64,000 nucleotides of DNA from a candidate division WWE3 bacterium (GTDB lineage: Bacteria > Patescibacteriota > WWE3 > UBA101185 > UBA10185): the NCBI GenBank assembly GCA_012798115.1, contig JAAZNV010000006.1, forward strand, positions 19,232-83,231, read 5' to 3'. A program made the translations under genes and the position numbers. Within the stretch, counting starts at the first letter, position 1, and each line of letters opens with the position of its first letter. Shown piece after piece: positions 3,385 through 34,994 of this stretch. Under the pieces are notes generated by a model. The model had not been told where the DNA came from, ran no database searches, and saw nothing but the letters and a program-made list of their open reading frames with translations.

Positions 3385-3948
3385 TTAGTTATGGAATTCT
3401 GATGCAGATAACCACTCAGGGGTTGGAAGGTTTTTGTAGTTTTTATTTGGAATAAACGTAGCATTTTCATTCCTATTTACCAGAAAATACCCCATCCCTC
3501 CAAGTTTTTCTATTTGACTGTAATCTTGAGGGGGATGCCCATCCTTCCAATCATCAAGTGTAATTAAGGGCTCAGTACCAATGTTAGACCATGAGTGACC
3601 CCACTCCACTGATATTTCTATTTCATCTCCTGGCATAAGCTCTACAAAGCATATCCTTTCAATGTTTTCTGGACTCCAGTCATCATCAACAAACTTTCTT
3701 TTTTGCATTAGTAGAATGCCTTGACCACAAAGAAGCTTATATCTTTCTATAGAGTTGCTACTTGTGTGATAATGCCCGAAAGTTTTAGGAAATTCTTCTC
3801 CAAAACTTCTAGGAGATATTACAGTCATGTTTTCCCATTTCTTGGAGACATTAGAAAATACCCAGTACACAGGACTAGATCCAGAAACATTTTTATCCAA
3901 TAACACAGGGGACATTTCACTTAAGGTACGTGTAGACTTGAGCAGCAT
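3385..3948 (-). CDS. Cupin-type sugar-phosphate isomerase, most like archaeal-type cupin glucose-6-phosphate isomerase.
   Basis: TFGHYHTS...E metal-binding cupin motif (GHxH...E); about 187 aa. Confidence 0.45.
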   Translation of the reverse strand: MLLKSTRTLSEMSPVLLDKNVSGSSPVYWVFSNVSKKWENMTVISPRSFGEEFPKTFGHYHTSSNSIERYKLLCGQGILLMQKRKFVDDDWSPENIERICFVELMPGDEIEISVEWGHSWSNIGTEPLITLDDWKDGHPPQDYSQIEKLGGMGYFLVNRNENATFIPNKNYKNLPTPEWLSASEFHN

Positions 3949-3999
3949 ATTTAAAGTATATAATTTTTATTAAACTTTAAAAGCCACAAACTAACATTA

Positions 4000-4722
4000 C
4001 TAATACTTAACAAGTATGTTTATCTTTGCATCTTTTCTAATTGAATCAAGCCAAGTTTGAAATTCAGTGCTAATCTTTTGTTGAACAAGCTGTTGTTTAA
4101 CTAATGTTTTAACATCTTCCATGTTTGTTCCTTCTGGAAGAGATGCTTTATTATCATCAATATACTTTTGGACTTCCTCGTCAGTTACTGTAGCTTTGTC
4201 AGCTAATATCCTTTCTATCAACTTCTGCAGTTCAATATTCTCAATTAGTTCATCTCTTGTCATTCCTTGTGAGGCTAATATCTCTTCAAGAGTTTGATTT
4301 TGTCCTTTTAAACTTTCTTCTATGTTTGTCATTTCATCATTAATTTCTTCTTTAGTTATTTTTATTCCTTTCTTCTTACCTTCTTGCCTTATTAATTCTT
4401 CTGTAATTATAGAATTTAACGTTGTAAGACCTTGATTCTTCTCTAATCTTCTTACTACCATCGACCTTGATATTGGTTTTCCATTGATAGTTGCTGCTAT
4501 GAAGTAACTTTTCAAGAAAAGACCAAATAGGAAAGCTATGAGTATAGCAATAACTCCTATAGAAAGAAGCTTGTTTTCCTTAAACCATTTTCTTAGATCA
4601 ATTTTCTTAAAGAAGGTTTTAATTTTGTTACACATATTGCATTTGGGTAGTTTATTATCGGATTTTTTGAAAAATCCTTTGATTTTATTTAATATTTTCT
4701 TCATTGGCAAAGTATAACACAA
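4000..4722 (-). CDS. Membrane-anchored SurA-N-terminal-domain chaperone-like protein (PrsA/SurA-like, no obvious PPIase domain).
   Basis: N-terminal TM helix then helical domain ...INGKPISRSMVVRRLEKNQG..., like SurA_N/PpiD N-domains. Start is ambiguous (Met at 4722 or 4704). Confidence 0.5.
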   Translation of the reverse strand: MCYTLPMKKILNKIKGFFKKSDNKLPKCNMCNKIKTFFKKIDLRKWFKENKLLSIGVIAILIAFLFGLFLKSYFIAATINGKPISRSMVVRRLEKNQGLTTLNSIITEELIRQEGKKKGIKITKEEINDEMTNIEESLKGQNQTLEEILASQGMTRDELIENIELQKLIERILADKATVTDEEVQKYIDDNKASLPEGTNMEDVKTLVKQQLVQQKISTEFQTWLDSIRKDAKINILVKY

Positions 4723-13385: not shown

Positions 13386-13715
13386 CCTTGTCCACCTCCT
13401 TAAAAAAAGTTCAAGTATTAATAGTTAGTAGAGTAGTAAAAAATGCTGAGAAAGTGCTTAAGCTTTTCTTTATACTTTTAATCTATAAATTCTTTTTCTT
13501 CCTATACCATGGAGAAGGTTAATATATTTTCTAAACTCACAGCCAATACCTTCCCAATTCTATATACACATTACAAAATTTATATCTAGGTACTATTAGA
13601 AAGATATATATATATTAGCTAGATATCTTGATAGAGAACAAAAAGATAATTTACTTTGTAAGTAGCTCTTCTCTAGATTTTTGATCAGGTACATGGGTAG
13701 TTATTGGAACTTTCA

Positions 13716-14297: not shown

Positions 14298-14340
14298 GGC
14301 TGAGCATGCTGGTCAGGAGCGTCTGCGTCTACTTTCCCAG
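14298..14340. repeat. Intergenic repeat copy R1 (GGCTGAGCATGCTGGTCAGG...CTACTTTCCCAG).
   Basis: Shares the GGCTRAGCATGYYGGT core with the copies at 14954 and 15572, and the CTA-TT-CCCAG 3' end with R3. Confidence 0.55.
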
Positions 14341-14910
14341 GTCAGGATAATTTACATCAAATCCTTTTAAATACTCCCCATGAAAAGAACTTTTTATATC
14401 TTCATACTTAATATCTTTGTAATTTTTAAAACTGCCAGAATAATATAAATACAATATTTGCATGAAGAAGCTATGGGTAACACAAAGCATATTATTGTAG
14501 CTGAGACCTTTTAGATATTTATCTAGCTCCTTTATTCTTTCCCAGGTATCTTTTAGAGTACTAAGTTCGGTGCCATCGATGAATCTATTAATTCGTTCCC
14601 CTGGTAAATCTGGATTCCAGGCACATTCCTCTAAAAGTTCACATGTCTCTATTTTTATGTTGAGATTGAATACTTTTTTAACCTCGTTGGCGCTTTCTAA
14701 AGTGCGTTTTGAGGGACTACTTATGATCACATCAAATTGCTTGTATGCATCTAGGTCTAATTCGTTTGTAATGTAGTTTTTAACGTCACTATTTATAGAT
14801 GGATCAATAAGTCCTTTGGATAGGTTTACATATTGCTCATGATCTGTGTTTTCTTTGGAATCAAACGGGTATGCTAATCTGTAATGTCTGATAAATGTAA
14901 CCACTTTCAC
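14329..14910 (-). CDS. Histidine phosphatase superfamily protein (phosphoglycerate mutase-like), tentative.
   Basis: N-terminal VTFIRHYRL (RHG-like) and C-terminal CVTHSFF segment. Confidence 0.45.
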   Translation of the reverse strand: MKVVTFIRHYRLAYPFDSKENTDHEQYVNLSKGLIDPSINSDVKNYITNELDLDAYKQFDVIISSPSKRTLESANEVKKVFNLNIKIETCELLEECAWNPDLPGERINRFIDGTELSTLKDTWERIKELDKYLKGLSYNNMLCVTHSFFMQILYLYYSGSFKNYKDIKYEDIKSSFHGEYLKGFDVNYPDLGK

Positions 14911-14953
14911 ACACGAATTATATTATCCCGTGAGCCCTTTCTCAAGGTTACAT

Positions 14954-14993
14954 GGCTAAGCATGTCGGTTTAGAACGCATGGGACTATTACAC
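14954..14993. repeat. Intergenic repeat copy R2 (GGCTAAGCATGTCGGTTTAGAACGCATGGG...).
   Basis: Aligns to R3 over about 35 nt, with the upstream GTGAGCCCTTTCT / GTGTGCCCATTCT also shared. Confidence 0.55.
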
Positions 14994-15067
14994 AAGAATC
15001 AGATTAATTTTAATGTTTTTCTGTATGCGAGCTTGACATTACATTAAATTATGTGTAGATTGAGGCA

Positions 15068-15427
15068 ATGAATGATGAAGGCTTAAAACAAGAACCAGAT
15101 TTAACCGAAGTCGTGAAAGATCTCTTGGATGCAGGCCATCGGGATGAGGTCGTTTCTGCCATCACCCAATTATATAACCAGTCTGAAGCAGGTATGATAC
15201 CTGGTGACTTTGACTCACTTGTAAGAACAAACCTAGAGAAGGTTGAAAAATCATTAGCTGACAACCCTGATGTAGATCTAAAAGATGAATTTACTGGATT
15301 TGTGGAGGATCTTACACGAGTAGCTGGTATGAACTCTTATCATGGTATAACACCCCCGTCCCATATTATGCAAGAAGCCATTGTGGATATGTTAAAAAAC
15401 ATGGATAAAGGAGAGGTTGTGAGTTAG
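15068..15427 (+). CDS. Acidic hypothetical protein (119 aa), flanked by repeat copies R2 and R3.
   Basis: ORF with locally higher GC than its neighbours; no motif recognised. Confidence 0.4.
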   Translation: MNDEGLKQEPDLTEVVKDLLDAGHRDEVVSAITQLYNQSEAGMIPGDFDSLVRTNLEKVEKSLADNPDVDLKDEFTGFVEDLTRVAGMNSYHGITPPSHIMQEAIVDMLKNMDKGEVVS

Positions 15428-15571
15428 TTTTCATCTGTCTTTACGCCTGTTTACGTGTATTATTTTCCATGTGTCATCGCTCTAATCATAGGTAGTTTAG
15501 GTTCGATCAAGGAGTATCTACTAGCCTTGAAAGAGTATTTGAGGCTTCGTGATCACTTGTGTGCCCATTCT

Positions 15572-15624
15572 GGCTGAGCATGTCGGTCTAACACCCATTT
15601 CATTCTCTAGGCTCTAATTCCCAG
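15572..15624. repeat. Intergenic repeat copy R3 (GGCTGAGCATGTCGGTCTAACACCC...CTAATTCCCAG).
   Basis: Third copy of the family; overlaps the last codons of the convergent gene. Confidence 0.55.
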
Positions 15625-16063
15625 ATAATTGAGCATACTTGTCTAGAGCCCTTAATCGTTTTAGTTCTTTTCTCACTTTACTTTTGAGAGTTTGGTATCT
15701 TTCAAGAATTTTATACTCACAAGCACTCTTTGAATTTAGAATCTCATCTTTTGTTTTATACTCATATATATTAAATTTTGTAGGTTTTTTAAACTGACAT
15801 CTGCTGAAATCTTGATTCGTTCCATCTGGAAGTACATTCCAAACATGAAAGTTATTTTTATCGTAAGCTAGTTTCCCCCCAAATAAGTCATACACAATTA
15901 AAGCAGTGGGTACACATTGTCCCAAGGCTTTGTCAACTCTAGTCCATTTATTAGCTAAATTGGGAAATACTGTATTGTTTGACCATGTGTCTTTAAATAT
16001 AGATTCGAGCTCATCAAATTGTTCTTTAGAAAGAAGATTTGAGTTTTGATATAAGTTCAACAT
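15614..16063 (-). CDS. Hypothetical protein (149 aa), co-operonic with the UDG-like gene.
   Basis: 7-nt overlap with the upstream ORF; no motif recognised. Confidence 0.4.
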   Translation of the reverse strand: MLNLYQNSNLLSKEQFDELESIFKDTWSNNTVFPNLANKWTRVDKALGQCVPTALIVYDLFGGKLAYDKNNFHVWNVLPDGTNQDFSRCQFKKPTKFNIYEYKTKDEILNSKSACEYKILERYQTLKSKVRKELKRLRALDKYAQLSGN

Positions 16064-16617
16064 AAGAGGTCTCTCAGTTGCTTAGCTAATTTATTAAATA
16101 TTTCTATGTTTTTCTGATGATTATATGGCCCAATTGGTGAGGGATGATATATAGGAAGGAATTGATACATACTTTCGGACAGAGATGCCTCAGTAATGAC
16201 TCCTATTTCCAAGTTTAAGTTGGAATTTTTATTGAATATTTCCAAAGTTTTTACGCCTAATAAAATAATAAATCTGATATTATTTGCTTTTAGTTGTTTT
16301 AGGAAGATAGGCCAACACTTAGATCCACAAACATCCAGTTGCTTCCGTTTTTTATCTACATAGCATTTGACCAATTCTGTAAATGAACAGTCATCAATGT
16401 TTAGTTGATAGGGTTCGAATAATTTATTTAAATTTTTACCAGTGGGCAAAAGCTTTCCGTTTATCGTATAGAATGCTTTACCAGATTTTCTCCAACCATT
16501 AGGTGCAGGAGATTCCCCAACTAAGAGAATATGCTTTCCTCTGGTGTTACCTAACTTGAAAAACTTTGTTATTGGGTAAGTGTCCGTATTTTCACAGTAA
16601 TGTTCTTGTTCATCCAT
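16057..16617 (-). CDS. Uracil-DNA glycosylase superfamily protein (family 4/5-like), tentative.
   Basis: LLVGESPAPNGW (GE[GS]PG-like motif A) and IYHPSPIGPYN (HPSP motif B), with several Cys. Confidence 0.5.
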   Translation of the reverse strand: MDEQEHYCENTDTYPITKFFKLGNTRGKHILLVGESPAPNGWRKSGKAFYTINGKLLPTGKNLNKLFEPYQLNIDDCSFTELVKCYVDKKRKQLDVCGSKCWPIFLKQLKANNIRFIILLGVKTLEIFNKNSNLNLEIGVITEASLSESMYQFLPIYHPSPIGPYNHQKNIEIFNKLAKQLRDLLC

Positions 16618-16709
16618 ACGCCAATTATATATGATTATATATTATGGAACTTATAGTGGCTGATTGATTTAATAACAATCCTATCCATATGAGTACTCTC
16701 CGGGCTACT

Positions 16710-16783
16710 TGGCTGGGGGACAGGGACTTGAACCCCAATTATTGCATCCAGAGTGCAACGTCCTACCATTAGACGATCCCCCA
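16710..16783 (-). tRNA. tRNA-Gln (anticodon CUG).
   Basis: Manual cloverleaf: U1-A72 acceptor stem (as in bacterial tRNA-Gln), D arm TCGTCTAATGGTAGGAC, anticodon loop CTCTGGA, T arm with TTCAAGT loop, encoded CCA. Confidence 0.8.
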
Positions 16784-17040: not shown

Positions 17041-17162
17041 ATTGGTTGTTTAGTGTATAACCTCAAAGAATAAAGAAAATAAGAAGGGGTAACATTTATT
17101 AAAAGCTACAAGCAAGTCGCGTTCAACAGAAAGCCACCTAAGTTGATAGATGGCTTTTGTGG

Positions 17163-17624
17163 TTAAAGTAAAAATAAACCTTCGGTGAATTTTTTGGCTA
17201 TTCTCAAGAGTTCATTTATCATTGGGCCTTTTAAACAATCAATTGAAATGACTTTATAAATCCATTGCTCTATGGATAAGCTTTCTCGTCCTCTTTCAGC
17301 TGGCGTCTCCCAATTTCTAAAGATGTATTTGATATGCTCTGCATTAGCACGGACGAAGATGTCCCCTTTCTCTATTTCAACACGATGAGAGAAAGGTCCA
17401 TGAGAACTTATTGTGGAAAATGCAAACACTGTGAGAAGTTCAATTCCTTCAAAGCTTTTAACGTCCTTTAAAAAAGCAATGGGTTTGCTCGGCGTGATTA
17501 ATTCCCACCTAGTATCGGCCCCATCCTTCTTAAGGTATAAATGTCCAGCCTCTAGAGACACAACTTCTTCTTCCATTTTTAACTCCTTTTTATTTAGAAT
17601 GTTGCTATTTAACAAAATAACCAT
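17163..17624 (-). CDS. Hypothetical protein (start possibly the internal MEEEVV at about 17576).
   Basis: ORF only; no motif recognised. Confidence 0.35.
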   Translation of the reverse strand: MVILLNSNILNKKELKMEEEVVSLEAGHLYLKKDGADTRWELITPSKPIAFLKDVKSFEGIELLTVFAFSTISSHGPFSHRVEIEKGDIFVRANAEHIKYIFRNWETPAERGRESLSIEQWIYKVISIDCLKGPMINELLRIAKKFTEGLFLL

Positions 17625-17703
17625 ACATAAGTCAAATGGTGTTTAAAATTACAGTATTTGTGTACTTTGTTAGTTATGTAGTTTAGGATACAATTTACTT
17701 ACT

Positions 17704-20540: not shown

Positions 20541-20615
20541 GGCCCCATCGTCTAATGGTTAGGACGTCAGGTTCTCAGCCTGTAAATCCGGGTTCGACTC
20601 CCGGTGGGGTCACCA
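20541..20615 (+). tRNA. tRNA-Glu (anticodon CUC).
   Basis: Manual cloverleaf: acceptor GGCCCCA/TGGGGTC, D arm TCGTCTAATGGTTAGGAC, anticodon loop TTCTCAG, T arm CCGGG-TTCGACT-CCCGG, encoded CCA. Confidence 0.8.
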
Positions 20616-20705
20616 CTCATGCCCTGTAGTATTTGACCTCCTCATAATATTATAATATAATAAGGCTATTAATCCGTTCAAATATTGAAAGGAAGGAGCT
20701 TAAAA

Positions 20706-21047
20706 ATGGCAGATTTATATGTTGGTTTAGGGGGGATCCTCGGAGCAATCTTGCTTGCTGCACTGGCCGTTCGCCAGCTTGGTGATTTCAACTACGACCA
20801 CCCGGAGATGAAGAAAGGTGAAGTTTTTATCACCAATGCTGATGCGGAAGACCTGCACCATGTGGGGTGGAAAACCAAACGATGTGGGAAGAAAGCATAT
20901 GATGCCCATGGCAGGTGCATTTCGGAATCTTATTGGCAAGGATCATTCCCTGTATTTGTTCAGAAATCCGAGATGATTCAAGCTGGTTTTAGGATTTTCC
21001 AGATTCGCTTTCTCTGCATTCAGATTCTTGACTCCCACAAAAGATAA
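20706..21047 (+). CDS. Small membrane protein with a His/Cys-rich soluble domain, in a GC-elevated islet 3' of tRNA-Glu.
   Basis: Strong RBS (GGAAGGAG, 7 nt upstream of ATG 20706), N-terminal TM (LYVGLGGILGAILLAALAV), DLHHVGWKTKRCGKKAYDAHGRC, and a terminator directly downstream. Confidence 0.4.
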   Translation: MADLYVGLGGILGAILLAALAVRQLGDFNYDHPEMKKGEVFITNADAEDLHHVGWKTKRCGKKAYDAHGRCISESYWQGSFPVFVQKSEMIQAGFRIFQIRFLCIQILDSHKR

Positions 21048-21056
21048 CCATTGAAA

Positions 21057-21091
21057 AACTTCTCTTGTTAAAAGCAACGAGAAGTTTTTTA
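21057..21091 (+). terminator. Rho-independent terminator (stem ACTTCTC..GAGAAGT, then TTTTTT).
   Basis: Hairpin plus U-tract seen directly in the sequence, immediately after the 20706-21047 ORF. Confidence 0.5.
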
Positions 21092-21298
21092 TTCCTCAAA
21101 GTAATCAAGTGAATTACCTGAGATTTCTAGTAAATGTACTGTAGTATCATGTGCCAACTTCTAAACATTGATGTAATTTCCGACAGGCGATCCCAAACTG
21201 GTTCTTGTGGGGGCTACCAATTGGTATTCATCAGGTGAGGATTATAATTTAGCGAGTTTCACATTGTTGATATTTTTTAATGATTATACAATGACTAT

Positions 21299-21850
21299 AT
21301 GCAAGCAATAGAATTACTAGGGGAAACTCAAAAATCTTTCGAGGCACAATTATCCCCCGAGAAACAAGAGAATATAAGGGCTATAACAGCTCATGAAGGT
21401 GCTCATGCTTTTGTTTCCCTAAAATTAGGTATCCCACTTATGAAGATCGAAATGAGTATAGAAAACGATAAGCAGGCAGGGAGAATTGTTTGGAATGACT
21501 TGAAAGGTATTACAACTGAGATGAGGGGAATTTCGTATGCAGCTGGATTAGCAGGTGAATTGGTCGTATTGGGCGAGGATTATGTAAGGAACAATGGTTT
21601 CAAAGGAGTAAGAACTGATTCTAAAAGACTTAACCAGCTTGGTTACATATCACAAGAAGATAAGGCAAGGTTACTAACAGAAGCCTTAGATGTTCTTATT
21701 AGTAACAAGGATGATTTTGAGAAATTTCGCGCCACCTTAGAGAGAGAATTAATAAAAGCCTCAAGAAAAGGCACTGATAGAATACTTTTAGACAGGGATA
21801 GATTAACAGAATTAGGAATACAAAAACCAGAGAAAGAGGCACTACATTAA
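21299..21850 (+). CDS. Standalone FtsH-like M41 zinc-metallopeptidase domain protein (no AAA ATPase).
   Basis: ITAHEGAHAF (HExxH) followed by ISYAAGLAGELVVLGEDY, which parallels the FtsH protease-domain TAYHEAGHA ... LGGRAAEE..FG; only 183 aa. Confidence 0.55.
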   Translation: MQAIELLGETQKSFEAQLSPEKQENIRAITAHEGAHAFVSLKLGIPLMKIEMSIENDKQAGRIVWNDLKGITTEMRGISYAAGLAGELVVLGEDYVRNNGFKGVRTDSKRLNQLGYISQEDKARLLTEALDVLISNKDDFEKFRATLERELIKASRKGTDRILLDRDRLTELGIQKPEKEALH

Positions 21851-21941
21851 ATGCAAAATTCCTGTATTAGGAAAAACAGTTGTTAAACCTTTCACAATTG
21901 TAAGAAATTTGTAAATCTTGAAGTTTGAAGTAAACCAATTG

Positions 21942-23264
21942 TTATTGATCGGAAACAACGTACTTAAAACTTTTTAATATCTCATCCACTTTCTTCTCAA
22001 AAGATACTCCTGACATATTCTTAATAGAAATCACAAGAACGATATTACGTGAAGATCCTGGGGATATATTTACGTAAATTAAATCTTCTCCTCTCCAGGA
22101 ATATCCCTTTAACATCAATCCATTTTTATCCCCAACTTTCAAAGATTTTTCTTCAAGTTTTGGAGCTTCTCCTTTAACTACAATATAATCATCAACTAAA
22201 GTTTTCTTTTGAACTTCCATGTATGTATTAAAATCTTCATCATATGATTTATCTACAAAAATACCAATACCATCAAAATTATTCTTATCTATAAAGGTAG
22301 AAGTATCTCCAAGAACTACTATCTTTTCTGCATTCTTGGAAGCTGGGTTTGAAATTTCACAACATTCCAAGCTAAATTTTGGATGTTCAAATTGAAAACC
22401 ATAAGGTGTACTTATAAATGTTTCTAGGGGACCCCTATCTGTTTTATCTAGATAAAATTTTAAAGAACTTAAAATATCTTCTGTTTCTGCTTTATACACT
22501 TGTTTATAACCAATATCTCCTTTAACAACTTGAGCAAATTCATAATTTAAAGTTCCTTTAACTATGTAAGTTAATTTATAATCAGAGCCGCAATTAGTAA
22601 CTTCAAATGTTCTTCCTTCAATTCCGTCTATTGTTGTTTCATTAATGTCTGATAATGTTGCTGTTTGCGGACATTTTATAGTAAAGGCATCCTTTTTAAC
22701 TTGAACAATCTCATCCAATTCCCTTTGAGTAGTAATAAACGTAGAAACTTTAAAAATATAACCTTCCTTTAAATTATCTTCTGTAACACTTGCTGATGTA
22801 TCTGAAGATGGTTGCTTCTCATAAATTATCTCAAGCTTCTTTATTTGGCCATCTCCTTCTGCAGATTCTAGAAGCTTTGCTTTATCTAAATATTCAAGAG
22901 AAATAGATAAGCTATCGCTGTTATGTTGTATCTTTTTTTCAACTTGAATATCTTCTACTTTTATTTTTTTATCTTCTTCCTCTATTGTTTGAACAATAGG
23001 TTTGTTCTTTATATAACTTCTTTTATAAAAATTAACAACTATCGGAACAAGTGTTAAGAGAAGTATGGATATAATAAGAACTGTTAAAATAAACTTAAAT
23101 CTTTTCTTTTTCTTTTTTATTTCCATTTCTTTCTTTTCAATATCAATCACAGATTCAACATTTGATTTAGTATTAGGAATACTATTCAAAATAGTATCTT
23201 CTTCTTGTTGTAAAGGGATTTCTTGAGATGTTTGTTTGGAGTTAGTTATTTGTTCTTCTGGCAT
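21942..23264 (-). CDS. Membrane-anchored hypothetical protein with a large extracytoplasmic domain (440 aa).
   Basis: Charged N-terminus, KKKKKRFKFILTVLIISILLLTLVPIVV TM, then no recognisable motifs. Confidence 0.45.
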   Translation of the reverse strand: MPEEQITNSKQTSQEIPLQQEEDTILNSIPNTKSNVESVIDIEKKEMEIKKKKKRFKFILTVLIISILLLTLVPIVVNFYKRSYIKNKPIVQTIEEEDKKIKVEDIQVEKKIQHNSDSLSISLEYLDKAKLLESAEGDGQIKKLEIIYEKQPSSDTSASVTEDNLKEGYIFKVSTFITTQRELDEIVQVKKDAFTIKCPQTATLSDINETTIDGIEGRTFEVTNCGSDYKLTYIVKGTLNYEFAQVVKGDIGYKQVYKAETEDILSSLKFYLDKTDRGPLETFISTPYGFQFEHPKFSLECCEISNPASKNAEKIVVLGDTSTFIDKNNFDGIGIFVDKSYDEDFNTYMEVQKKTLVDDYIVVKGEAPKLEEKSLKVGDKNGLMLKGYSWRGEDLIYVNISPGSSRNIVLVISIKNMSGVSFEKKVDEILKSFKYVVSDQ

Positions 23265-23280
23265 ACACTAATAATAACAT

Positions 23281-23880
23281 CTAAAGGCCTAGAAGATCAG
23301 ACGCGTTCTGCATTGCAAGAAGAGACACTCGAATAAATTCTTCTGGCTTTATTCCTAGCTTTTCTTCACATTGAGTTATTTGATTTCTATCAACAGCTTT
23401 TGCAAATTCTTTTTGCTTAAACTTTTTTAGTATTGATTCTAAAGTTACATCAGATAGTTTTTTGTTTGGCATCACAAGAGCTATTGCAACTATAAATCCT
23501 GTAAGTTCATCGCAACATTCTAAAGTCCACTCAAGAATACTTTCTGGTGATTTTAAGTTAGTAAGTTTATTGTTGTGTGATTTTATTGTGTTAATTATTT
23601 CTTCTGGGACTTCATACTCCTTTAACCACTTTAAAGTTTCTAAAGTATGTTTACTTGGATCTTGGTTTGTTAACTCCCAATCTGCATCATGGAGTATTCC
23701 TGTTATTTCCCATTGTTCTTTACTTAAATTTCCTATGTTTATTCCTTTTTCCTTGTAGTAGTCATAAAAAGCAGATAATACTTTTCCTACAGCATAACAA
23801 TGCTTTCTTAAGTTTTTGTTCTGCATATGTTCATGAAGAAGATCTAATGCAGATTCTAAGGTTAATATCTCCTTGTTCAT
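23281..23880 (-). CDS. HD-domain phosphohydrolase.
   Basis: H...HD pattern (RKHCYAVGKV ... ILHDADW). Confidence 0.6.
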   Translation of the reverse strand: MNKEILTLESALDLLHEHMQNKNLRKHCYAVGKVLSAFYDYYKEKGINIGNLSKEQWEITGILHDADWELTNQDPSKHTLETLKWLKEYEVPEEIINTIKSHNNKLTNLKSPESILEWTLECCDELTGFIVAIALVMPNKKLSDVTLESILKKFKQKEFAKAVDRNQITQCEEKLGIKPEEFIRVSLLAMQNASDLLGL

Positions 23881-26838: not shown

Positions 26839-26866
26839 GCCACAGTTTTCCTGTGGCTTTTTATAA
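26839..26866 (+). terminator. Second terminator-like hairpin GCCACAG-ttttc-CTGTGGC followed by TTTTT, ending 5 nt before ATG 26871.
   Basis: Seen in the sequence; argues the real start is ATG 26871 rather than the track GTG at 26853. Confidence 0.35.
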
Positions 26867-26870
26867 ATTT

Positions 26871-29800
26871 ATGAAAAAAATAAAAATAAAGATCCACAGT
26901 GAAAAACTGTTTTCGTATGTTGCTATGTTTTCTATGGTTGCAAATGTGTTATCTCCATTTGCAGCTGTGCTTCCTTCCACTGCTTATGCAGAAGGTTCTT
27001 CTACTACAGAAACTACTCAGCAAGTAGAGGAAGAATCTAAAGAAGAAGTTAAACCTGAGGAAGAAGCCCCTGCAGAAGAACCAGAAGGAACGGTAGAACA
27101 AATAGAAGAGCAGAGTACTGAAAAAGAAAGCACCGAAGAAACCCAAGAACCTGTACAAGAAGAAACTGCTGAGCCAAAAGTTTCAGTAGAGTCTTCAAAT
27201 GAAATACCAGAAGGTAAATTTACAATAGATTCAGTAGAGAGTCCTATAACAGAACCTGAAGTCGTAGAAGTTATAACTCCTGCTGAACCGGTAGTTGAAG
27301 AACCAGCAATGGTAGAAGAACAGACAGGAGATATACTTCCTGATGGAGTCTCTGACTACAGACCAGAGATAGAGATTGAAGAAGGTGAAGCTACAGAGGT
27401 TCAGGAAGTTGTAGATCCTGTTTCAACAGAAACTAGTAGTACAGAGCCGGAAGTAGTTATTACAGAGCCTAGTGAAACTGAACCAGCAGTAACTGTTGAA
27501 CCAATTACTCCAACTGAAACTGGAGAAACTCCTAAAGAAGTAATTAAAGAATATGAGACGTTAGCAGATGGAGCAGAAGTAAAAGATAGTACAAAAGAAG
27601 ATTGGGATATTGATGGGGAAAAAGCTGAAACGAGGGAAGTAGTTAAACTTGGTATTAAATATATTTTCCCTATAGATAGTGAGGATAATGAAGTTAGTGT
27701 TACATTTACTAAACTTCCAAAATTAAGTGAAGATAAATCTACTTTAATAATAGAAAGAGTAAAAGTATCAGATCTTGATTTACCTGAAGATTTTAAAACT
27801 GATGCAGAATATGCATTTGATATTACTACTCCAGATATGAATGATGGAGAATTTGAATATAATTTAACTCTTCCTAAACCTGAAGGTGTGGACGCAGAAG
27901 TTGCATATATAGAAAAATCAATAAATGAGGCTAAAGATGAAGTTAAGAGTGAAGATGTAAAAAAGGTTGAAGAAGATAAAATTGATCAGGACGGCGGAAG
28001 CATAAAAGTAGAAAGTTTAGATCACTTGACCTTATTTATTCCTCTTGGTGGTGTAGTTCTTAGTGTATCTGGTAGTTTTGATGGCGCAACACAGGTTACT
28101 GTGGAACCTGGGACTGCTATTGAAGTTGATATTACAGTAGAGCGTAGTGATGGTTGGGATTGGTGGAGTAATGATGTTGAAAATGATTGGAAAGCTACTT
28201 CTTGGAAAATAAATGATGGCTCTTGGAATTGTGAGAATCACAGTGATCATACATGGGGTAATGGGACAGACACAGGTTCCTTCAATATTACAGCTCCTCT
28301 GGCAGAAGGTACGTACGACGTCAGTTTCAGGGCACATAGAAGTAATTCATGCGAAGACACTGGTGTTAGTAATACATTTACGTTAACAAATGGAATTAAG
28401 GTTGAAAGTTACTCTGCTCCAAGTCCAACACTTCATTATAATGTTAACGATGATTATGTTTTAACATCTGTTTCAGGAGTCTGGACAGATGTAAATGGTG
28501 GTAGTGAAGTAACTGGCGAGGGAACTAATGAAGTTAGGTGGGGACGTAGCGCAGAATATGGCAAGAAGAGTGGATTAAGATTTGATGGCAGTGATCAACA
28601 AAGTTTTAATGAAGGAAGTAGTTTTTATCTTGGAGCATTAACGCACTTTAACTGGCCAATTACCAATGCTTCACGTGGAGCCACTCTTAAGATCACTTTG
28701 CATTTTTCTAAACCTGGTATAAGTCCAGATCCAGATTTTAGTTATGACTTTAATATAGAAGAAACTTCTAACAGCTATGGTCATTGTCTTTCTTGGCAGC
28801 AAAGTTCAACTCCTTGTGATGACAAGATAACATTTCCATCTAGTTATGGTGAAAAGAGTTTTACAATAGGAGATAAACTTTATACTCTAAAAATATTAGG
28901 ATTTGTTAACTCCTATCCAGGAGGTTCTCCTGTTTCTCAGTTTATTACAGAAGAACAAAAGAATAACACAGCTTATTTAGTTGGTACCCTTTCATCTGTT
29001 CTTGTTCCTGCTCCTCAAATAACCCTAGTTGAGAAAGCAATTAATGGTAATGATGCTGATTCGTCTCCTGGAGATAGCTTATATGTTGGAGATGCAGTAA
29101 CATTTACCTATCAAGTTCAAAATACAGGTAATGTTGATTTAACTAATATAGTTATTCATGATAACGACTCAAGTTTATCTGTTACTTGTCCTTCTACGTC
29201 TTTAACTTCTGGGTCTTCTATGACCTGTACAGCAACAAGTACCGTTAAGCTAGGGAATTATCACAATACTGCTTATGTAACAGCAAAGCATGGTTCTCAG
29301 TCTTTAAGGAGTAGTGATGAAGAAGGATATTATGTTGGTGTAAATAGAATAATTTGTGGCGATGGTATAAAAGATGTTTCGGAAGCATGTGATAACGGTC
29401 CTGATAATGGAGATGTTTGTACGGCTCCTTATGATGGGGATTGTAATTATTGTGGTGTAAGTTGTGAGATTATAACAGTGAGAGGGCCCTACTGTGGAGA
29501 TGGAACTAAGAATGGGTCGTCAGAACAGTGTGATGGTCTAGACTTGGGTAATCTACCATCTTCAGATTTTTCTTGTACTAAAAAATGTGAACTTAATTTA
29601 ATTCAAGATAAAGTAACTATTTGTCATGCTGACGCTTCTGGACATAAACCATATACCATCAATAAGCCAAATAAATCTGCTGATGTAAATGGACACGATG
29701 GGCATAATGGACCTATTTGGTTCCTAGGTATAACAGGCGATTGGGGAGATATAATTCCTCCATTTTATTACGTTGGGGGTTATTACGTCGGAAAAAACTG

Positions 29801-32800
29801 GACGCCTGAAGGTGAAGCAATTTGGAGGAACGGTTGTGATGTTCCACCATACTGTGGTGATGGGGTTATAAATCAGCCTACAGAACAATGTGATGATGCT
29901 AACTCTGTAAATAATGATGGGTGTAGTGCCACGTGCCAGCTTGAAACTGGAACAATTACAATTATTAAGGATGCACAACCTGATGATAGTCAAACATTTA
30001 ACTTTACATATGAGAGTAATCCTTATGCTATCGGTAATTTCAGCTTAACAGATAATGGAGGTGGCAATGAAAAGATAAGTTTTGCGTCTATTCCAATAGG
30101 GTCATACTCTTGGACTGAGGATCTAGTTACAGATTGGCGCTTGGATAGCATTGCATGTGATGATAGCAATAGCGTTGGGGACTTATCAGCAAGAAGAGTT
30201 GATGTTGTGTTAGATGCTAATGAACATGTAACTTGCATCTTTACTAATGTGTTGAAGACTGGGACAATCTCAGGAGTCAAATTTGAAGACATAAACGGCA
30301 ATCGTGTCCAGGACAGTAATGAACATGGACTATCTGGTTGGACAATATATATTGATAGCAATAAGAATAATCAATTGGATGCTGGTGAACCTACTCAGGT
30401 TACTGATGTAAATGGAAACTTTGTTTTCAATGGCTTAACTCCTGGAAAATACTGGGTGAAGGAAATTAATCAAACTGGTTGGAGTCAAACAGTGCCAGCA
30501 GGGCTATACCAGGAAGTTGATCTGAAAGCTGATGAAAATGAGTCTATATATTTTGGAAATCAAAGGAATCCAGTAACTATAAATGCATATAAAGTAGTTT
30601 GTGATAATGAGTCTTACTTACCAAATTATGGTATTGGTGGACCAGACATTACTTCTACAACAGCACAAGATTGGGTAAGTAACAGCAATGGACATTGTAA
30701 GCTTGAACCTAACTGGAAGTTCCAGTGGAGTTTTGATGGTGTAGATAATCCTGGAGATAATATAACCAGTGAAGCAGGAACAGGTTGGAATACTTTTGGT
30801 CCAACTGATGGTGATGGTTTTGCACAAGTTAAGATCTATCAGCTTGATACGCCTAAGCTTTGGTTTAGAGAAGTACTTCAAGATGGTTATATTCCATTTA
30901 CATATGGAGCACACCCCGATAATTCAGATAATGTAAGTGCTGAGTTTTACTGCAATGATGATGTTTTTAACTACGATAACTGGGAATGGATAGATAACCC
31001 GCAATACGGAAATACTTACTACTGTGTTGCATGGAACACACTAAAGAAGGGATCTTTAGAAGTAACAAAGACTGTAAACTGGACAGAAATTATTCCTGAT
31101 GTGTCAAAGACTTTTGAAGTATGTATAACAGGTCCTTCTTACACATCTGGAAACTGCAAGACGATAGATTATGATGGTGGAACTTTAACGTGGAATGATT
31201 TATTGCTGGGTGATTACACAATAACAGAATCTGATCTTGGTGCACATTGGTCAGTTGTTGGTTCTGGATCTGTAGTTTCAGTATCTGATTCCTCTACGAC
31301 ACATCAAATAACTAATACATACATCCCATACTGTGGCGATGGAGTTAAGAATGGAGCAGAGCAATGTGATGGGAGAAGTGGAGTTAATGAAGATATGGAG
31401 TTTTGTACTAGCCAGTGTAAGCTAGTTCCAGTTTACGATGGTAATCATGAGTGTCCAAAAGGAACAATTGAAAAATATATTACCGGAATTACTTTAGGTA
31501 GCCAAAGTAGTTCTTTGCAAACACTTAATTTATCAGGTGGGAGATCTTATCTTCTAAAAGCTTTTGGAACTTACCAATATGGTAGTGGTTCTACAAGAAA
31601 AGCTGACCCAGCTTATGGATCTGAGGATAATTTTGCTACCTGGAGACCTGATATAGGAATTTGGGGTGTAAACAACAGAGGTGTTACTTCAATTCTAGGA
31701 AATCTAGGACGTGGGATGGGTGTAATTGAATGGGATAACGATAAAAATATTGATGAAGATCACATTTATGAAAAGTTAATTAAGCCTGAAAGTGACTTGG
31801 AAGCAAAGTTTGTTATTAGCGACTGGTACAGCAATTGGTATGGAAACAGCTGTGATAATCAAGGTTGTATGACTGATAATAATGGCTCGTTGAATGTAGA
31901 TTTGTATGAATGTGTTGAACCAAGTTCAATTCAAGGAAAGAAATTCAAAGATGTTAATGGCAATGGGATAAGAGACAGTGGTGATACGTACCTTGATGGT
32001 TGGACAGTAAATCTGTATCAACAAAAAGAAGGGTGGAGTTTAGTAAAAAGCATGATAACAGGCAATGATTTAACTGAAGCTGGATCAGTAGATCAAGGTC
32101 AATACAGATTTGTTAATCTTCTTCCTGGAAAGTATTTAGTTTGTGAGGAACTTAAGTCTGGTTGGGTGCAAACAGCACCAGTTGAAGGGACTTCTTATAA
32201 CGGTACTACTTGTTACGAAATAGACCTAGCAGCTGGAAAAAGTGAGGTTGGAAAAGTGTTTGGTAACTTTGAATTAGGAAAAGTTCAAGGTATGAAGTTT
32301 AATGATCTAGATGGGGATGGAAACTCACATGAAACTGGTGAAGAATATTTAAATGGTTGGACAATTAGATTATATAAAGATTGGGCAGAACCAGTTGAAG
32401 TTATAACTTCAAATACAGGAACTTTAGGGCAATATAAATTCGAGAATTTAAAGCCAGGAACTTATCAGGTTTGTGAGGTTTTACAACAAGGATGGGTACA
32501 GACATGGCCAAGTGCTGGGGATATTCCAGTTGGAGACAATGGAGTTACACACCCCAACTATGGAACTGCTGTTATTAATTCATCTAGTGCTTTAGATGAG
32601 GGTGCAAATTGCTGGCAAACAGTAGTTTCCGCATCGGGTCAATTCAATCAGCTGTTAAGGTTTGGGAACTCAAATCTTGGATCAATTCATGGTATGAAGT
32701 ATATAGATACTTCTGGTGATGGGAACTTTGATAGCGGAACCGATTGGGGTGCTTCTGGTTGGACAATAAATTTGTATAAACTAGTTAATAGCACGTATGT

Positions 32801-34994
32801 TCTTGCAAGTTCGGTATCAACTGATTCAAATGGATATTATTCATTTGCAAATCTCGAGCAAGGAACATACAAGTTGGAAGAAGTTCAACAATCTGGTTAT
32901 CAAATTATAAATCCATCTGCAGGAATTTATGAAGGAATTATTTTAAATCCTGGAGATAATTTAACGAATTATAACTTTGGTAATTTCCAGAACGGGAGTG
33001 TGTACGGTTGCAAGTACAACGACTTAGACGGTGATGGTGTTAGAAATAGAGAAATTGAACCTCAAATGGCAGGTGTAACAATGAACTTATATGATTCTTC
33101 ATGGAATTTAGTAGCATCAACAGCTACATCTGAAGGCTCTGGATATGGTAATAATTACTCGTTTAGTAATCTTCTTGGAAAGGGTACTTATTACGTTTGT
33201 GAAGTAATGTGGAAAGGTTGGGCACAAACTGAACCTAACGCGGAAAATGGTGTACTAAATGTATCACCAAATGCAGAAAATGAAGGTTCTTACTGCAGAA
33301 AGATAGAAAATAACTACTCTGGTGGTGGTTATGCAAGTCAAAGGTTTGGTAATGTTTTTGTAAATCCAAAACTTCAAATCTCAAAGAGTAATGATGCATC
33401 TTCTGCAAAGAAGATTGGAGATATTGTTACATTTACCATAAAGGTAAAAGTATTAGACTTCAAGCTTGATAATGTAACAGTTCTAGATCTTCTTCCAAAA
33501 GGATTCATATTCCAAGATGAGGATTGGGGAGTAACCTCCAGCAACCCATTGTTTAGTTTCACAGGAGATCCTCATTATGCCTCTCCTGGGACATGGAAGT
33601 TAGGGAGTCTACAGAAAGATGAAGAAGTTACTATTACATATGAGGCTAAAGTTGGATCAGATGTAGACCCTGGTGTTTATAAAGATTTGGCTTGGACTTC
33701 TGGGGATGATATTTTAGGTAGTAATGTCTTAGGCTTGGCTCAAGATGGTAAGGTAAATGATTATTTTGTAGGTACAGAAGTTGAAGTAACAAAGGACAAG
33801 GATTCTACTAAAGATACAGTTGATGTGAAAGAAACAGAAGAAGAGGAAGAGAAAGAAGAAGTGTTGGGTGCTTCTGATGTAAGATTACCTGCTACAGGAG
33901 CTAGCACAGCTATACTAGATGTAGTTTTAATAGCTGGTTTAGTGGGAGCCTTACTTATGATAATTGGAGGTATAGGAAAAATGTTAAAAGCTAAAAAGAA
34001 AAAGGATAAAAACTCAAGACTTAAAAAAGCGTTGTTAACAATGCTTATGTTAAGTTTTAGTTTGATACTTACTAGTAAAGTGTATGCAGAGTCAGACTCT
34101 AAACTAGTTGCTAGAATAGAAGATCCTAAATCTCCTGCTATATCATCGTTCAGCTTAAGCTTTGTTGTTCTTGATGCAAATGAAACACCAAGAAGTATTG
34201 AAGCTCAATGCTGGAAGAAAGGCCCGCTTGATTTAGACTTTGTTAAGTTTGCAGATCCTAGCGTTGATGGTGTGGGTGGAAACACAAATAATTGTTTGGT
34301 TGATAATTCAGTATTAACAAAATCAGGGACATATGTGTTTAAAGTTAAGGTTAAGGCTGATAGCGGTGATTGGCAAGATTCAATAAACACAGCCGCTGTT
34401 GTGTTTGATAATGATGGACCTGATAAACCGAAATATATAGAAAAAGATAAGAAGTCTGATTGCAAATATGAGATAACGCTAAAAACAGCAGATGATGATC
34501 AAACATCTTATATAGAAGTGTATAAAGATGATGATAAAGAAATGAATCTTCATTCTGGTAACTTGATTAAGACTAAGACAATAGGACCTGATGAAAAATA
34601 TGAATTTACGTATGAAGTTTATAGCAGTGATTGTGCAAAAACATGGTATTTTGCTGTAATTGCATTTGATGATTCTGGTAATGCATCGGATCCTAGAGCT
34701 GAAGAAGTAGTTACAAAGGTTACAGTAACAAAAACTACTAAAACGGAAGAAGTGCTTGGGGCGCTTGAAGTTCCTGGTGGAGCAAACCTTTCGCAGGAAG
34801 GTGAAGGAGCAAACAAGGAAGTACCTACTAAGACTAGTGAAGAATCAAAAGGTGCAGTTCTTGGAGAAAAAACTCAAGAACAAGGATTTGTGCTAAGGGT
34901 AGTTAAGTCTTTATGGTTTTGGTTAATAATTGTTCTTCTTGTGTATATCATTGTACGTGTTGTTAAAAAGAAACAAAATAAAAAGAAAAGGTAA
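26871..34994 (+). CDS. Giant modular cell-surface protein (about 2707 aa) with an internal LPATG sorting signal and an in-frame C-terminal module.
   Basis: Signal peptide, acidic E/T/P-rich spacer, at least three CGDG...CDDGN Myxococcus-type Cys-rich repeats, five SdrD-B/Cna-B-like repeats (GxKFxDxNGNG...GWTIxLY...PGxYxVxE), a DUF11-like repeat, then LPATG, TM and KAKKKKDK tail. Confidence 0.85.
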   Translation: MKKIKIKIHSEKLFSYVAMFSMVANVLSPFAAVLPSTAYAEGSSTTETTQQVEEESKEEVKPEEEAPAEEPEGTVEQIEEQSTEKESTEETQEPVQEETAEPKVSVESSNEIPEGKFTIDSVESPITEPEVVEVITPAEPVVEEPAMVEEQTGDILPDGVSDYRPEIEIEEGEATEVQEVVDPVSTETSSTEPEVVITEPSETEPAVTVEPITPTETGETPKEVIKEYETLADGAEVKDSTKEDWDIDGEKAETREVVKLGIKYIFPIDSEDNEVSVTFTKLPKLSEDKSTLIIERVKVSDLDLPEDFKTDAEYAFDITTPDMNDGEFEYNLTLPKPEGVDAEVAYIEKSINEAKDEVKSEDVKKVEEDKIDQDGGSIKVESLDHLTLFIPLGGVVLSVSGSFDGATQVTVEPGTAIEVDITVERSDGWDWWSNDVENDWKATSWKINDGSWNCENHSDHTWGNGTDTGSFNITAPLAEGTYDVSFRAHRSNSCEDTGVSNTFTLTNGIKVESYSAPSPTLHYNVNDDYVLTSVSGVWTDVNGGSEVTGEGTNEVRWGRSAEYGKKSGLRFDGSDQQSFNEGSSFYLGALTHFNWPITNASRGATLKITLHFSKPGISPDPDFSYDFNIEETSNSYGHCLSWQQSSTPCDDKITFPSSYGEKSFTIGDKLYTLKILGFVNSYPGGSPVSQFITEEQKNNTAYLVGTLSSVLVPAPQITLVEKAINGNDADSSPGDSLYVGDAVTFTYQVQNTGNVDLTNIVIHDNDSSLSVTCPSTSLTSGSSMTCTATSTVKLGNYHNTAYVTAKHGSQSLRSSDEEGYYVGVNRIICGDGIKDVSEACDNGPDNGDVCTAPYDGDCNYCGVSCEIITVRGPYCGDGTKNGSSEQCDGLDLGNLPSSDFSCTKKCELNLIQDKVTICHADASGHKPYTINKPNKSADVNGHDGHNGPIWFLGITGDWGDIIPPFYYVGGYYVGKNWTPEGEAIWRNGCDVPPYCGDGVINQPTEQCDDANSVNNDGCSATCQLETGTITIIKDAQPDDSQTFNFTYESNPYAIGNFSLTDNGGGNEKISFASIPIGSYSWTEDLVTDWRLDSIACDDSNSVGDLSARRVDVVLDANEHVTCIFTNVLKTGTISGVKFEDINGNRVQDSNEHGLSGWTIYIDSNKNNQLDAGEPTQVTDVNGNFVFNGLTPGKYWVKEINQTGWSQTVPAGLYQEVDLKADENESIYFGNQRNPVTINAYKVVCDNESYLPNYGIGGPDITSTTAQDWVSNSNGHCKLEPNWKFQWSFDGVDNPGDNITSEAGTGWNTFGPTDGDGFAQVKIYQLDTPKLWFREVLQDGYIPFTYGAHPDNSDNVSAEFYCNDDVFNYDNWEWIDNPQYGNTYYCVAWNTLKKGSLEVTKTVNWTEIIPDVSKTFEVCITGPSYTSGNCKTIDYDGGTLTWNDLLLGDYTITESDLGAHWSVVGSGSVVSVSDSSTTHQITNTYIPYCGDGVKNGAEQCDGRSGVNEDMEFCTSQCKLVPVYDGNHECPKGTIEKYITGITLGSQSSSLQTLNLSGGRSYLLKAFGTYQYGSGSTRKADPAYGSEDNFATWRPDIGIWGVNNRGVTSILGNLGRGMGVIEWDNDKNIDEDHIYEKLIKPESDLEAKFVISDWYSNWYGNSCDNQGCMTDNNGSLNVDLYECVEPSSIQGKKFKDVNGNGIRDSGDTYLDGWTVNLYQQKEGWSLVKSMITGNDLTEAGSVDQGQYRFVNLLPGKYLVCEELKSGWVQTAPVEGTSYNGTTCYEIDLAAGKSEVGKVFGNFELGKVQGMKFNDLDGDGNSHETGEEYLNGWTIRLYKDWAEPVEVITSNTGTLGQYKFENLKPGTYQVCEVLQQGWVQTWPSAGDIPVGDNGVTHPNYGTAVINSSSALDEGANCWQTVVSASGQFNQLLRFGNSNLGSIHGMKYIDTSGDGNFDSGTDWGASGWTINLYKLVNSTYVLASSVSTDSNGYYSFANLEQGTYKLEEVQQSGYQIINPSAGIYEGIILNPGDNLTNYNFGNFQNGSVYGCKYNDLDGDGVRNREIEPQMAGVTMNLYDSSWNLVASTATSEGSGYGNNYSFSNLLGKGTYYVCEVMWKGWAQTEPNAENGVLNVSPNAENEGSYCRKIENNYSGGGYASQRFGNVFVNPKLQISKSNDASSAKKIGDIVTFTIKVKVLDFKLDNVTVLDLLPKGFIFQDEDWGVTSSNPLFSFTGDPHYASPGTWKLGSLQKDEEVTITYEAKVGSDVDPGVYKDLAWTSGDDILGSNVLGLAQDGKVNDYFVGTEVEVTKDKDSTKDTVDVKETEEEEEKEEVLGASDVRLPATGASTAILDVVLIAGLVGALLMIIGGIGKMLKAKKKKDKNSRLKKALLTMLMLSFSLILTSKVYAESDSKLVARIEDPKSPAISSFSLSFVVLDANETPRSIEAQCWKKGPLDLDFVKFADPSVDGVGGNTNNCLVDNSVLTKSGTYVFKVKVKADSGDWQDSINTAAVVFDNDGPDKPKYIEKDKKSDCKYEITLKTADDDQTSYIEVYKDDDKEMNLHSGNLIKTKTIGPDEKYEFTYEVYSSDCAKTWYFAVIAFDDSGNASDPRAEEVVTKVTVTKTTKTEEVLGALEVPGGANLSQEGEGANKEVPTKTSEESKGAVLGEKTQEQGFVLRVVKSLWFWLIIVLLVYIIVRVVKKKQNKKKR
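30258..33240 (+). repeat. Region encoding five divergent SdrD-B-like (Cna-B type) beta-sandwich repeats, interleaved with other domains, inside the giant CDS.
   Basis: Repeating protein pattern (I/V)xG(V/M)K(F/Y)xDxNG(N/D)G...GL(S/D)GWT(I/V)xLY...GxYxFxNLxPGxYxVxE...GWxQTxP, seen five times. Confidence 0.6.
33885..33899 (+). other. LPATG sortase recognition motif codons (followed by a hydrophobic segment 33900-33980 and a basic tail), internal to the giant ORF.
   Basis: TTA CCT GCT ACA GGA read directly; downstream ASTAILDVVLIAGLVGALLMIIGGIG then KMLKAKKKKDK. Confidence 0.75.

Follow-up and report, generated by a model that had tools for sequence, protein, structure and literature searches.

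Introduction

One account (PMC2920897, citing Hendrix) describes morons as autonomous extra genes of prophages, which carry their own transcription signals, differ in GC content and occur in varied contexts. Islands and integrative elements that target tRNA genes offer a second model for compositionally atypical DNA, and a third point of reference is the protease domain of FtsH, AFG3L2 and YME1 (MEROPS M41, PF01434). We consider all three here in relation to two genes, designated orfA and orfB, of a candidate division WWE3 bacterium, a member of the Patescibacteria or candidate phyla radiation (CPR). The genes lie at 20616-21940 of a 64,000-nucleotide stretch of contig JAAZNV010000006.1 (assembly GCA_012798115.1), which was analysed at its full length and is termed the window (mean GC 33.7%). 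An earlier note on this DNA had described the interval as a GC-elevated islet of about 1.3 kb, situated directly 3' of a tRNA-Glu gene and carrying a small membrane protein and a stand-alone FtsH-like protease domain, and had proposed that it might be the remnant of a mobile element or a compact acquired module.

The locus resembles tRNA-targeted islands in its location immediately 3' of a tRNA gene and in its partly atypical composition; it differs from them in lacking an integrase, an attL/attR duplication and strain-level presence/absence, and in that only one of its two genes is atypical. With moderate rather than strong confidence, we favour a reading in which two unrelated genes have come to lie side by side: a laterally acquired, moron-like cassette bearing orfA, and a resident gene, orfB, for a stand-alone M41-like protease.

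Results

Composition and anatomy of orfA

Only two open reading frames (ORFs) of at least 40 aa with coding support occur in the interval, orfA and orfB, and their products are each 100% identical to WWE3 proteins, NMB91355.1 (GYA37_00745) and NMB91356.1 (GYA37_00750), respectively. Composition was judged against a reference set of 56 window genes, with codon-usage likelihoods computed leave-one-out, and the rarity of GC values was scored over all 342-nt windows of the 64 kb. On these measures orfA (20706-21047, + strand; 113 aa) is the extreme case. Its GC content is 45.6%, close to the "about 47 percent" estimated by eye in the earlier note, and its GC content at third codon positions (GC3) is 0.469, compared with 0.244±0.062 for the reference genes (z 3.6, rank 1), while the log-likelihood of its codon usage is also the most deviant of the set (z -3.9, rank 1 of 56). 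The excess is greatest at third codon positions; at first positions GC is 0.55, and at second positions it is normal (z 0.66). Just 0.44% of the 342-nt windows reach the GC content of orfA, and these fall in two places only, the tRNA-Glu/orfA region itself and a Cys/Gly-rich ORF near 56.2-56.8 kb. By contrast, orfB (21299-21850, + strand; 183 aa) has a GC content of 37.5% (z 1.2), a GC3 of 0.29 (z 0.7) and an unexceptional codon usage (z -0.8, rank 12 of 56), all within the native range, despite having been read earlier as GC-elevated as well. The GC and codon-usage analysis suggested in that note therefore sets orfA strongly apart and leaves orfB ordinary; since the composition of orfB is native, the GC islet measures about 0.35 kb, the extent of orfA, and not 1.3 kb.

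The gene appears to be equipped as a unit. A Shine-Dalgarno sequence, AGGAAGGAG (20690-20698, +), as read from the sequence, ends 7 nt before the ATG, and the ORF is followed by an intrinsic terminator (21052-21094, +), a hairpin and U-tract with a predicted dG of -16.8 kcal/mol (z -5.3, 0 of 200 shuffles), so that the strong ribosome-binding site and terminator reported previously are both upheld. A candidate sigma-70-like promoter, TTGACC-17 nt-TATAAT (20633-20661, +), agrees with the consensus at 11 of 12 positions and lies 45 nt upstream of the ATG. A search for repeats around this cassette found a 9-nt direct repeat, CTGTAGTAT, bracketing it as a left copy at 20624-20632 (+) and a right copy at 21139-21147 (+), a possible target-site duplication; terminal inverted repeats or conserved ends were found neither here nor in the related cassette of contig L001, described below. 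The predicted product has a single hydrophobic segment, located at its N-terminus (residues 4-22, Kyte-Doolittle 2.34), in keeping with the small membrane protein originally recognized: 113 aa with one predicted N-terminal transmembrane (TM) helix, followed by a conserved small domain of CPR proteins.

The orfA family and a second cassette

The sole close homolog of orfA, and thus its closest, is P0002, encoded on contig L001 (64% aa identity). Differences between the two genes number 30, 24 and 56 at first, second and third codon positions, and the ratio of nonsynonymous to synonymous substitution rates (dN/dS) is 0.135, with dS saturated at about 2; this low ratio, together with the third-position bias, indicates that orfA encodes a protein under purifying selection and is not an RNA element. 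A structured RNA had been considered as the cause of the GC peak, and was dropped: the Rfam matches of the window were limited to two tRNAs, and L001 had none.

A profile built from orfA and P0002 recovered 67 small proteins (~70-170 aa) from Patescibacteria, including Nomurabacteria and Paceibacterota, which share a domain of ~60 residues with the pattern FNxxHPE..DEVFITN..GWKTKRxG..AYD..G..FPVFVKxxE. In an alignment of 63 sequences, H32, E34, E39, N44, R59, G61, P82, F84 and E89 are invariant, and P33, F41, W55, T57, K58, Y65, G69 and V83 nearly so (≥90%). The N-terminal TM helix is present in some members and absent in others. An AlphaFold model of orfA has a predicted local distance difference test score (pLDDT) of 82, rising to 93-97 over core residues 31-90. 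No member of the family matches Pfam; orfA itself has no match in Pfam, NCBIfam, PHROGs or PADLOC, the family profile found no relevant match in the PDB, and no structural relative was detected. The domain defines an unannotated family of small CPR proteins. A metagenome scan for orfA returned the same genome only, and for P0009 the context is a contig of 705 bp.

The homolog on L001 also resides in a discrete unit, a cassette of ~535 bp comprising a promoter-like site, GGAAGGAGC (a sequence thereby kept in the homolog), the ORF and a terminator. This cassette splits one copy of a ~220-nt repeat that is found intact elsewhere on the contig, and the sequence CC.CCA.CCAG is duplicated at both of its junctions (8-11 bp). 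The split repeat and duplicated junction are an insertion-type signature, and the CTGTAGTAT copies and the L001 duplication are spaced similarly from their respective genes. Copies of the repeat occur at 1-219, 1130-1247 and 1783-1893 of L001; it has a long terminal stem, GGACAGGGAT...ATCCCTGTCC, with recurring GTTCGAAC palindromes, and gave no match to Rfam.

The gene for P0002 is as GC-rich as orfA, and L001, like the window, is AT-rich. Both close relatives are GC3 outliers in their own surroundings (orfA, 0.47 versus 0.24; P0002, 0.51 versus 0.30), whereas distant members of the family are typical of their hosts, as on contigs L017 (0.30 versus 0.30), L019 (0.32 versus 0.33) and L021 (0.33 versus 0.29). 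The GC bias of orfA is thus not a trait of its family. Because synonymous sites are saturated between orfA and P0002, and neither has drifted to the composition of its host, the simplest reading is that each arrived recently and independently from a GC-richer source.

The family is found in diverse settings. One member lies on a phage-like contig of 36 kb with an endolysin (phrog_315, 4e-43), a ribonucleotide reductase and a helicase (phrog_16, 2e-69); another lies in a defence island with SocA/Panacea, MazE and type I restriction-modification genes; and a third is a solitary gene on a Patescibacteria contig (L019, 4738-7618), placed between pilM and pilN/pilO-like genes for type IV pili.

The tRNA-Glu site

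The tRNA gene noted directly 5' of the interval was identified by ARAGORN and by Rfam (RF00005, 58.8 bits) at 20541-20615 (+); it is a tRNA-Glu with anticodon CTC and a genome-encoded CCA end, and lies to the left of the orfA cassette. It is also one of the genes surrounding the interval, which otherwise comprise a 140-aa gene, VanW, a 440-aa gene, lysyl-tRNA synthetase (LysRS) and GreA; an exact-sequence look-up of the 140-aa protein, encoded upstream, returned no record.

A repeat of the 3' end of tRNA-Glu near 21940, which had been suggested as a check on integration, is absent: no second copy of the terminal 26 nt exists in the 64 kb, even with up to 3 mismatches allowed, no repeat family joins 20590-20615 to 20616-23400, and direct and inverted repeats around the interval are confined to chance-level matches. 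The reported absence of an integrase also holds, in that no recombinase ORF or domain was detected in the interval or flanking genes. Nor is composition atypical across the interval as a whole; orfA alone is atypical, while orfB and the intervening spacer (33.9% GC) are host-like.

Contigs of the same species from other samples (L011, L012 and L016) cover both orfA and orfB at 98.7-99.4% identity, and a second protein-level variant (P0093/P0094) also carries the pair. Three additional contigs start in this region, L013 just upstream of orfA (20692), and L014 and L015 within it (20754 and 20912), the last two including orfB. These assembly breaks were entertained as a sign of strain heterogeneity, an idea rejected because the break points disagree. 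Among the same-species contigs sampled, no allele lacking orfA or orfB was found. The locus therefore fails four defining tests of a classical tRNA-integrated island, namely an integrase, att sites, island-wide composition and polymorphism. What endures of the original proposal is the compact acquired module, as applied to orfA; a two-gene element integrated at the tRNA is not favoured.

orfB, a stand-alone M41-like protein

The AlphaFold model of the orfB product (pLDDT 84, predicted TM-score 0.80) consists of a protease domain only, and the protein has no hydrophobic segment and no AAA+ module. When the model was compared with the PDB by Foldseek, the best 24 matches, and 44 of the best 49, were FtsH, AFG3L2, YME1 or FtsHi chains (probability about 1.0), with TM-scores for chains of the FtsH family of 0.5-0.58, query-normalised. 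The UniRef name of the protein is "Peptidase M41 domain-containing protein". The stand-alone FtsH-like domain proposed from the sequence is thus seen at the level of the fold, and not by matches to M41 in Pfam, NCBIfam or PDB-profile searches. A literature search found no description of stand-alone M41 proteins in Patescibacteria.

The HExxH motif comprises H32-E33-G-A-H36. Among 19 family members, H36, G83, D107 and G115 are invariant and H32, A85, E87, G103 and S108 nearly so, and E33 is kept in all complete sequences but one. In M41 peptidases the third zinc ligand, downstream of HExxH, is an Asp, or a Glu according to mutagenesis. An hhalign comparison of orfB with the E. coli FtsH protease domain was weak (E 0.0012) but sensible, and paired HEGAH with HEAGH, KIEMSIE with KVTIIPR, and AGLAGELVVLGEDYV with GGRLAEEIIYGPEHV. 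E87 falls within the segment paired with GGRLAEE of FtsH, and D107 is a further candidate for the third ligand.

A profile from six homologs, used with HMMER, found 21 clusters among 1.84 billion representative proteins, and the family is on this account very small; two of the 21 relatives are long proteins of 915 and 1518 aa with multiple matching stretches. So far the family has been found in CPR-like sequences only. No match to it was obtained in IMG/VR viral contigs, GenBank phages or plasmids, and orfB itself had none in PHROGs or PADLOC.

Upstream of the gene is a promoter-like site, TTGGTA-16 nt-TATAAT (21221-21248, +), a consensus match only, at 10 of 12 positions. Reading of the sequence from 21258 to 21301 revealed no recognisable Shine-Dalgarno sequence for orfB. 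A weak promoter-like -10 element, GATTAT, occurs at 21282-21287, ~11 nt before the ATG. Speculatively, the orfB mRNA might be leaderless.

Genomic neighbourhoods of orfB

The comparison of synteny urged by the earlier note showed that a distant WWE3 relative (contigs L002-L007; 46% identity in LysRS, 73% in GreA and 41% in the 440-aa protein) shares the neighbourhood of orfB, and not tRNA-Glu or orfA. On L002, a homolog with 68% aa identity lies on the same side of a block of genes for a 433-aa protein, LysRS and GreA as orfB does in the window. The ~4.3 kb between homolog and block contain a 209-aa gene of 54% GC, a TerS-like gene (phrog_4102, 6e-15) and a P-type ATPase, and its upstream side, where the window has tRNA-Glu and orfA, is taken up by genes for a PLD-family protein, a large serine integrase (phrog_95, 2e-36) and, 2.8 kb away, an Xre regulator. 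There is no tRNA on L002, and a search around the integrase region gave no informative att-like repeats. Hence orfB has apparently long been established in this neighbourhood, and in the relative represented by L002 the neighbourhood appears to be a hotspot for mobile DNA.

The 209-aa gene just downstream of the L002 homolog (3864-4493, - strand) makes up another GC-rich islet of one gene, distinct from orfA, next to an orfB-family gene, with a GC3 of 0.54 in a genome of ~34% GC; it has no Pfam or PHROG match.

Other homologs of orfB are each solitary, and occur with ClpP (L010), with a glycosyltransferase and a polA-like gene (L008), and with a 305-aa gene (L009); L008 was the one distant locus found by a scan of genome contigs for orfB. 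In these three loci GC3 of the homolog is below that of its neighbour, at 0.23 versus 0.53 (ClpP), 0.29 versus 0.40, and 0.47 versus 0.64. Because of these differences, and of the context on L002, the orfB family may itself be mobile between CPR lineages on longer timescales. A hidden Markov model search, with all loci fetched, found the orfA and orfB families together only in the species of the window. They are not, for this reason, a conserved two-gene module.

Other features of the window

Real strain-level variation in the window clusters at tRNA-Gln (16710-16783, -), not at tRNA-Glu. Beside this tRNA, segments 14302-16709 and 17052-17658 are missing from L011 and L012. The first, 2.4 kb long and contiguous with the tRNA-Gln 3' end, carries genes for a histidine phosphatase, YunG and a UDG-family protein as well as a 119-aa ORF; the other contains a 153-aa ORF whose codon usage ranks second among window genes for atypicality. 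In their stead, L011 has ~1.35 kb with HMUDK_hel and tRNA_bind genes, near window positions 13561-13596. The second GC peak lies in a 732-aa Cys/Gly/Trp-rich ORF (56188-58386, +), especially at its N-terminus (56231-56760); a stretch of this ORF resembles a thrombospondin type-1 repeat by eye, and the ORF had no Pfam match at 1e-5. Downstream of GreA and an ASCH gene, a 2713-aa ORF (26853-34994, +) encodes a probable surface protein with CLIPPER, SpaA and SdrD_B-type repeat domains, and varies in length between assemblies (2699 aa in L011).

Discussion

We envisage orfA as a self-contained cassette of ~0.5 kb, composed of a promoter-like site, a strong Shine-Dalgarno sequence, the ORF and an intrinsic terminator, which would have been gained by lateral transfer, much as phage morons are, from a CPR phage or from a CPR genome richer in GC, and would have inserted between genes directly downstream of tRNA-Glu. 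Its product would be anchored in the membrane, with a domain that is probably cytoplasmic. An accessory role at the membrane, related to mobile elements or phage-host conflict, is suggested by the occurrence of family members in a phage-like contig, a defence island and an interrupted pilus operon. The gene orfB, on the other hand, would be a lineage-conserved resident encoding a cytoplasmic zinc metallopeptidase of M41 fold, devoid of an AAA+ unfoldase or membrane anchor. The protein is probably catalytically active, given the conservation of HExxH and of Asp/Glu ligand candidates, and might act independently of ATP, possibly in a ring oligomer resembling that of the FtsH protease domain, on peptides or on unfolded or specific substrates. 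The two genes would be independent and separately transcribed, and neighbours by chance of genome history.

Several observations weigh against this reading. As regards the cassette, promoter matches of at least 11/12 number six in the window, counting both strands, compared with 4.6 in shuffles, and with counts so nearly equal it is position that commends the orfA promoter candidate; the CTGTAGTAT repeat is equalled or bettered in 12% of shuffles, and so is non-significant alone. As regards transfer, the link of the orfA family to phages consists of a single contig type (L023-L026), searches of IMG/VR, GenBank phages and plasmids returned no member, and no donor lineage of orfA has been identified. 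The sampled contigs provided no empty-site allele and no strain without orfA, because of which we infer, rather than observe, the insertion and mobility of this gene. The residence of orfB is called into question by the location of its L002 homolog, which has a serine integrase on one side and a TerS-like gene on the other, and by the AT-richer composition of its homologs relative to their neighbours on L008-L010. As to its assignment, orfB had no match in Pfam or NCBIfam at E <=1, including PF01434, and the six-homolog profile did not retrieve FtsH from PDB sequences.

These considerations invite comparison with other explanations. That orfA and orfB arrived in one element targeting tRNA-Glu, which later lost its integrase and att sites, would account for the junction of the interval with the tRNA 3' end and for the foreign composition of orfA, and could draw on the L002 homolog of orfB, with its flanking serine integrase, TerS-like gene, Xre repressor and 54%-GC gene, and on the varied contexts of homologs on L008-L010. 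We nonetheless regard it as unlikely: another copy of the tRNA 3' end and significant direct or inverted terminal repeats are wanting, orfB is native in composition, the two families are never together outside this species, all sampled strains have one arrangement, and L002 has no tRNA. It is the integrase and TerS-like gene of L002 that keep an old, decayed element including orfB under consideration. If instead nothing was acquired, both genes being native and the GC content of orfA a product of selection (on expression, mRNA structure or amino-acid content), its fixation in the sampled strains and the breadth of its family in CPR would be expected, and its Gly/Ala-rich TM segment does lift GC at first codon positions to the 0.55 observed. 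Selection of this sort is poorly reconciled with an excess that peaks at third positions while second positions stay normal, with the host-typical GC3 of other family members, or with the finding that P0002 is likewise an outlier, in the insertion-like context of L001, and we consider an entirely native origin quite unlikely.

A regulatory role for orfB can also be imagined, as an ImmA/IrrE-like protease derived from a mobile element and cleaving a repressor for excision or induction, with orfA as unrelated cargo. The protein is small and cytoplasmic and has HExxH, and on L002 its homolog lies by an integrase, with the Xre-type helix-turn-helix gene 2.8 kb off. But orfB matches no Peptidase_M78 or ImmA model, nearly all of its fold matches are of FtsH type, no helix-turn-helix repressor gene is near it in the window, and the neighbours of its homologs on L008 (glycosyltransferase) and L010 (ClpP) are housekeeping genes; such a function seems distinctly improbable. 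Least credible, and very improbable indeed, is a split, ATP-independent FtsH-like machine in which orfA supplies the anchor or adaptor and orfB the protease. Adjacency on one strand, and the pairing of a TM helix with an M41-like domain, are what recommend it; the genes stand 251 bp apart with a strong terminator between them, their compositions differ, and no other locus has both families.

Returning to the acquired orfA cassette and resident orfB, a bolder extension can be framed, although we rate it as improbable. The orfA unit could typify a class of transposase-free cassettes of ~0.5 kb, distributed in CPR bacteria and their phages, moving as units of promoter, gene and terminator and generating target duplications of 8-11 bp, whose cargo, an undescribed small fold (HPE/GWKTKR/FPVF), serves in phage-host conflict at the membrane, and orfB could represent a CPR-specific, ATP-independent lineage of FtsH-like proteases. 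Apart from this extension, the locus illustrates that a single self-contained gene suffices to produce a compositional spike beside a tRNA in a tiny, AT-rich CPR genome, with no need of an integrase-type island. It also draws attention to two essentially unstudied families, a CPR-wide small domain in orfA and a very rare metallopeptidase in orfB, the latter of which could show how an M41 protease is used without an unfoldase where the proteostasis machinery is minimal. Current understanding would be changed only by a demonstration of the function or mobility of orfA or orfB.

Relation to known systems

Among described proteases, orfB most resembles the FtsH/AFG3L2/YME1 protease domain in its fold and in the position of HExxH on the equivalent helix; the following beta-hairpin and GxAxE segment also align (TM-score 0.54-0.58, query-normalised). 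It differs from FtsH in lacking AAA+ and TM segments, in its length of 183 aa, in reading HEGAH where FtsH has HEAGH, in belonging to a tiny CPR-like family, and in falling below detection by Pfam, NCBIfam and PDB profiles. With ImmA/IrrE (Peptidase_M78) it has in common a small size, a cytoplasmic location, HExxH, and one homolog by an integrase with an Xre gene near; it is distinguished by its M41 fold, by having no M78 match, and by having no repressor gene beside it in the window. A Vibrio cholerae protein of about 125 aa to which no function is assigned (PDB 5IQJ) is likewise stand-alone and aligns to the orfB model (TM-score 0.65-0.69, target-normalised), but is shorter and only 14-16% identical.

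For orfA the nearest parallel is the phage moron. In morons the extra gene stands between phage genes, whereas orfA occupies a chromosomal intergenic site beside a tRNA, with no phage genes among its neighbours, no prophage genes in the window, and no strain found that lacks it. In other respects the two are alike: orfA is a single gene with a terminator and a candidate promoter of its own, its GC content is unlike that of its neighbours, its relatives occupy unrelated contexts, one of them a phage-like contig, and the nearest of them, on L001, lies in a discrete insertion.

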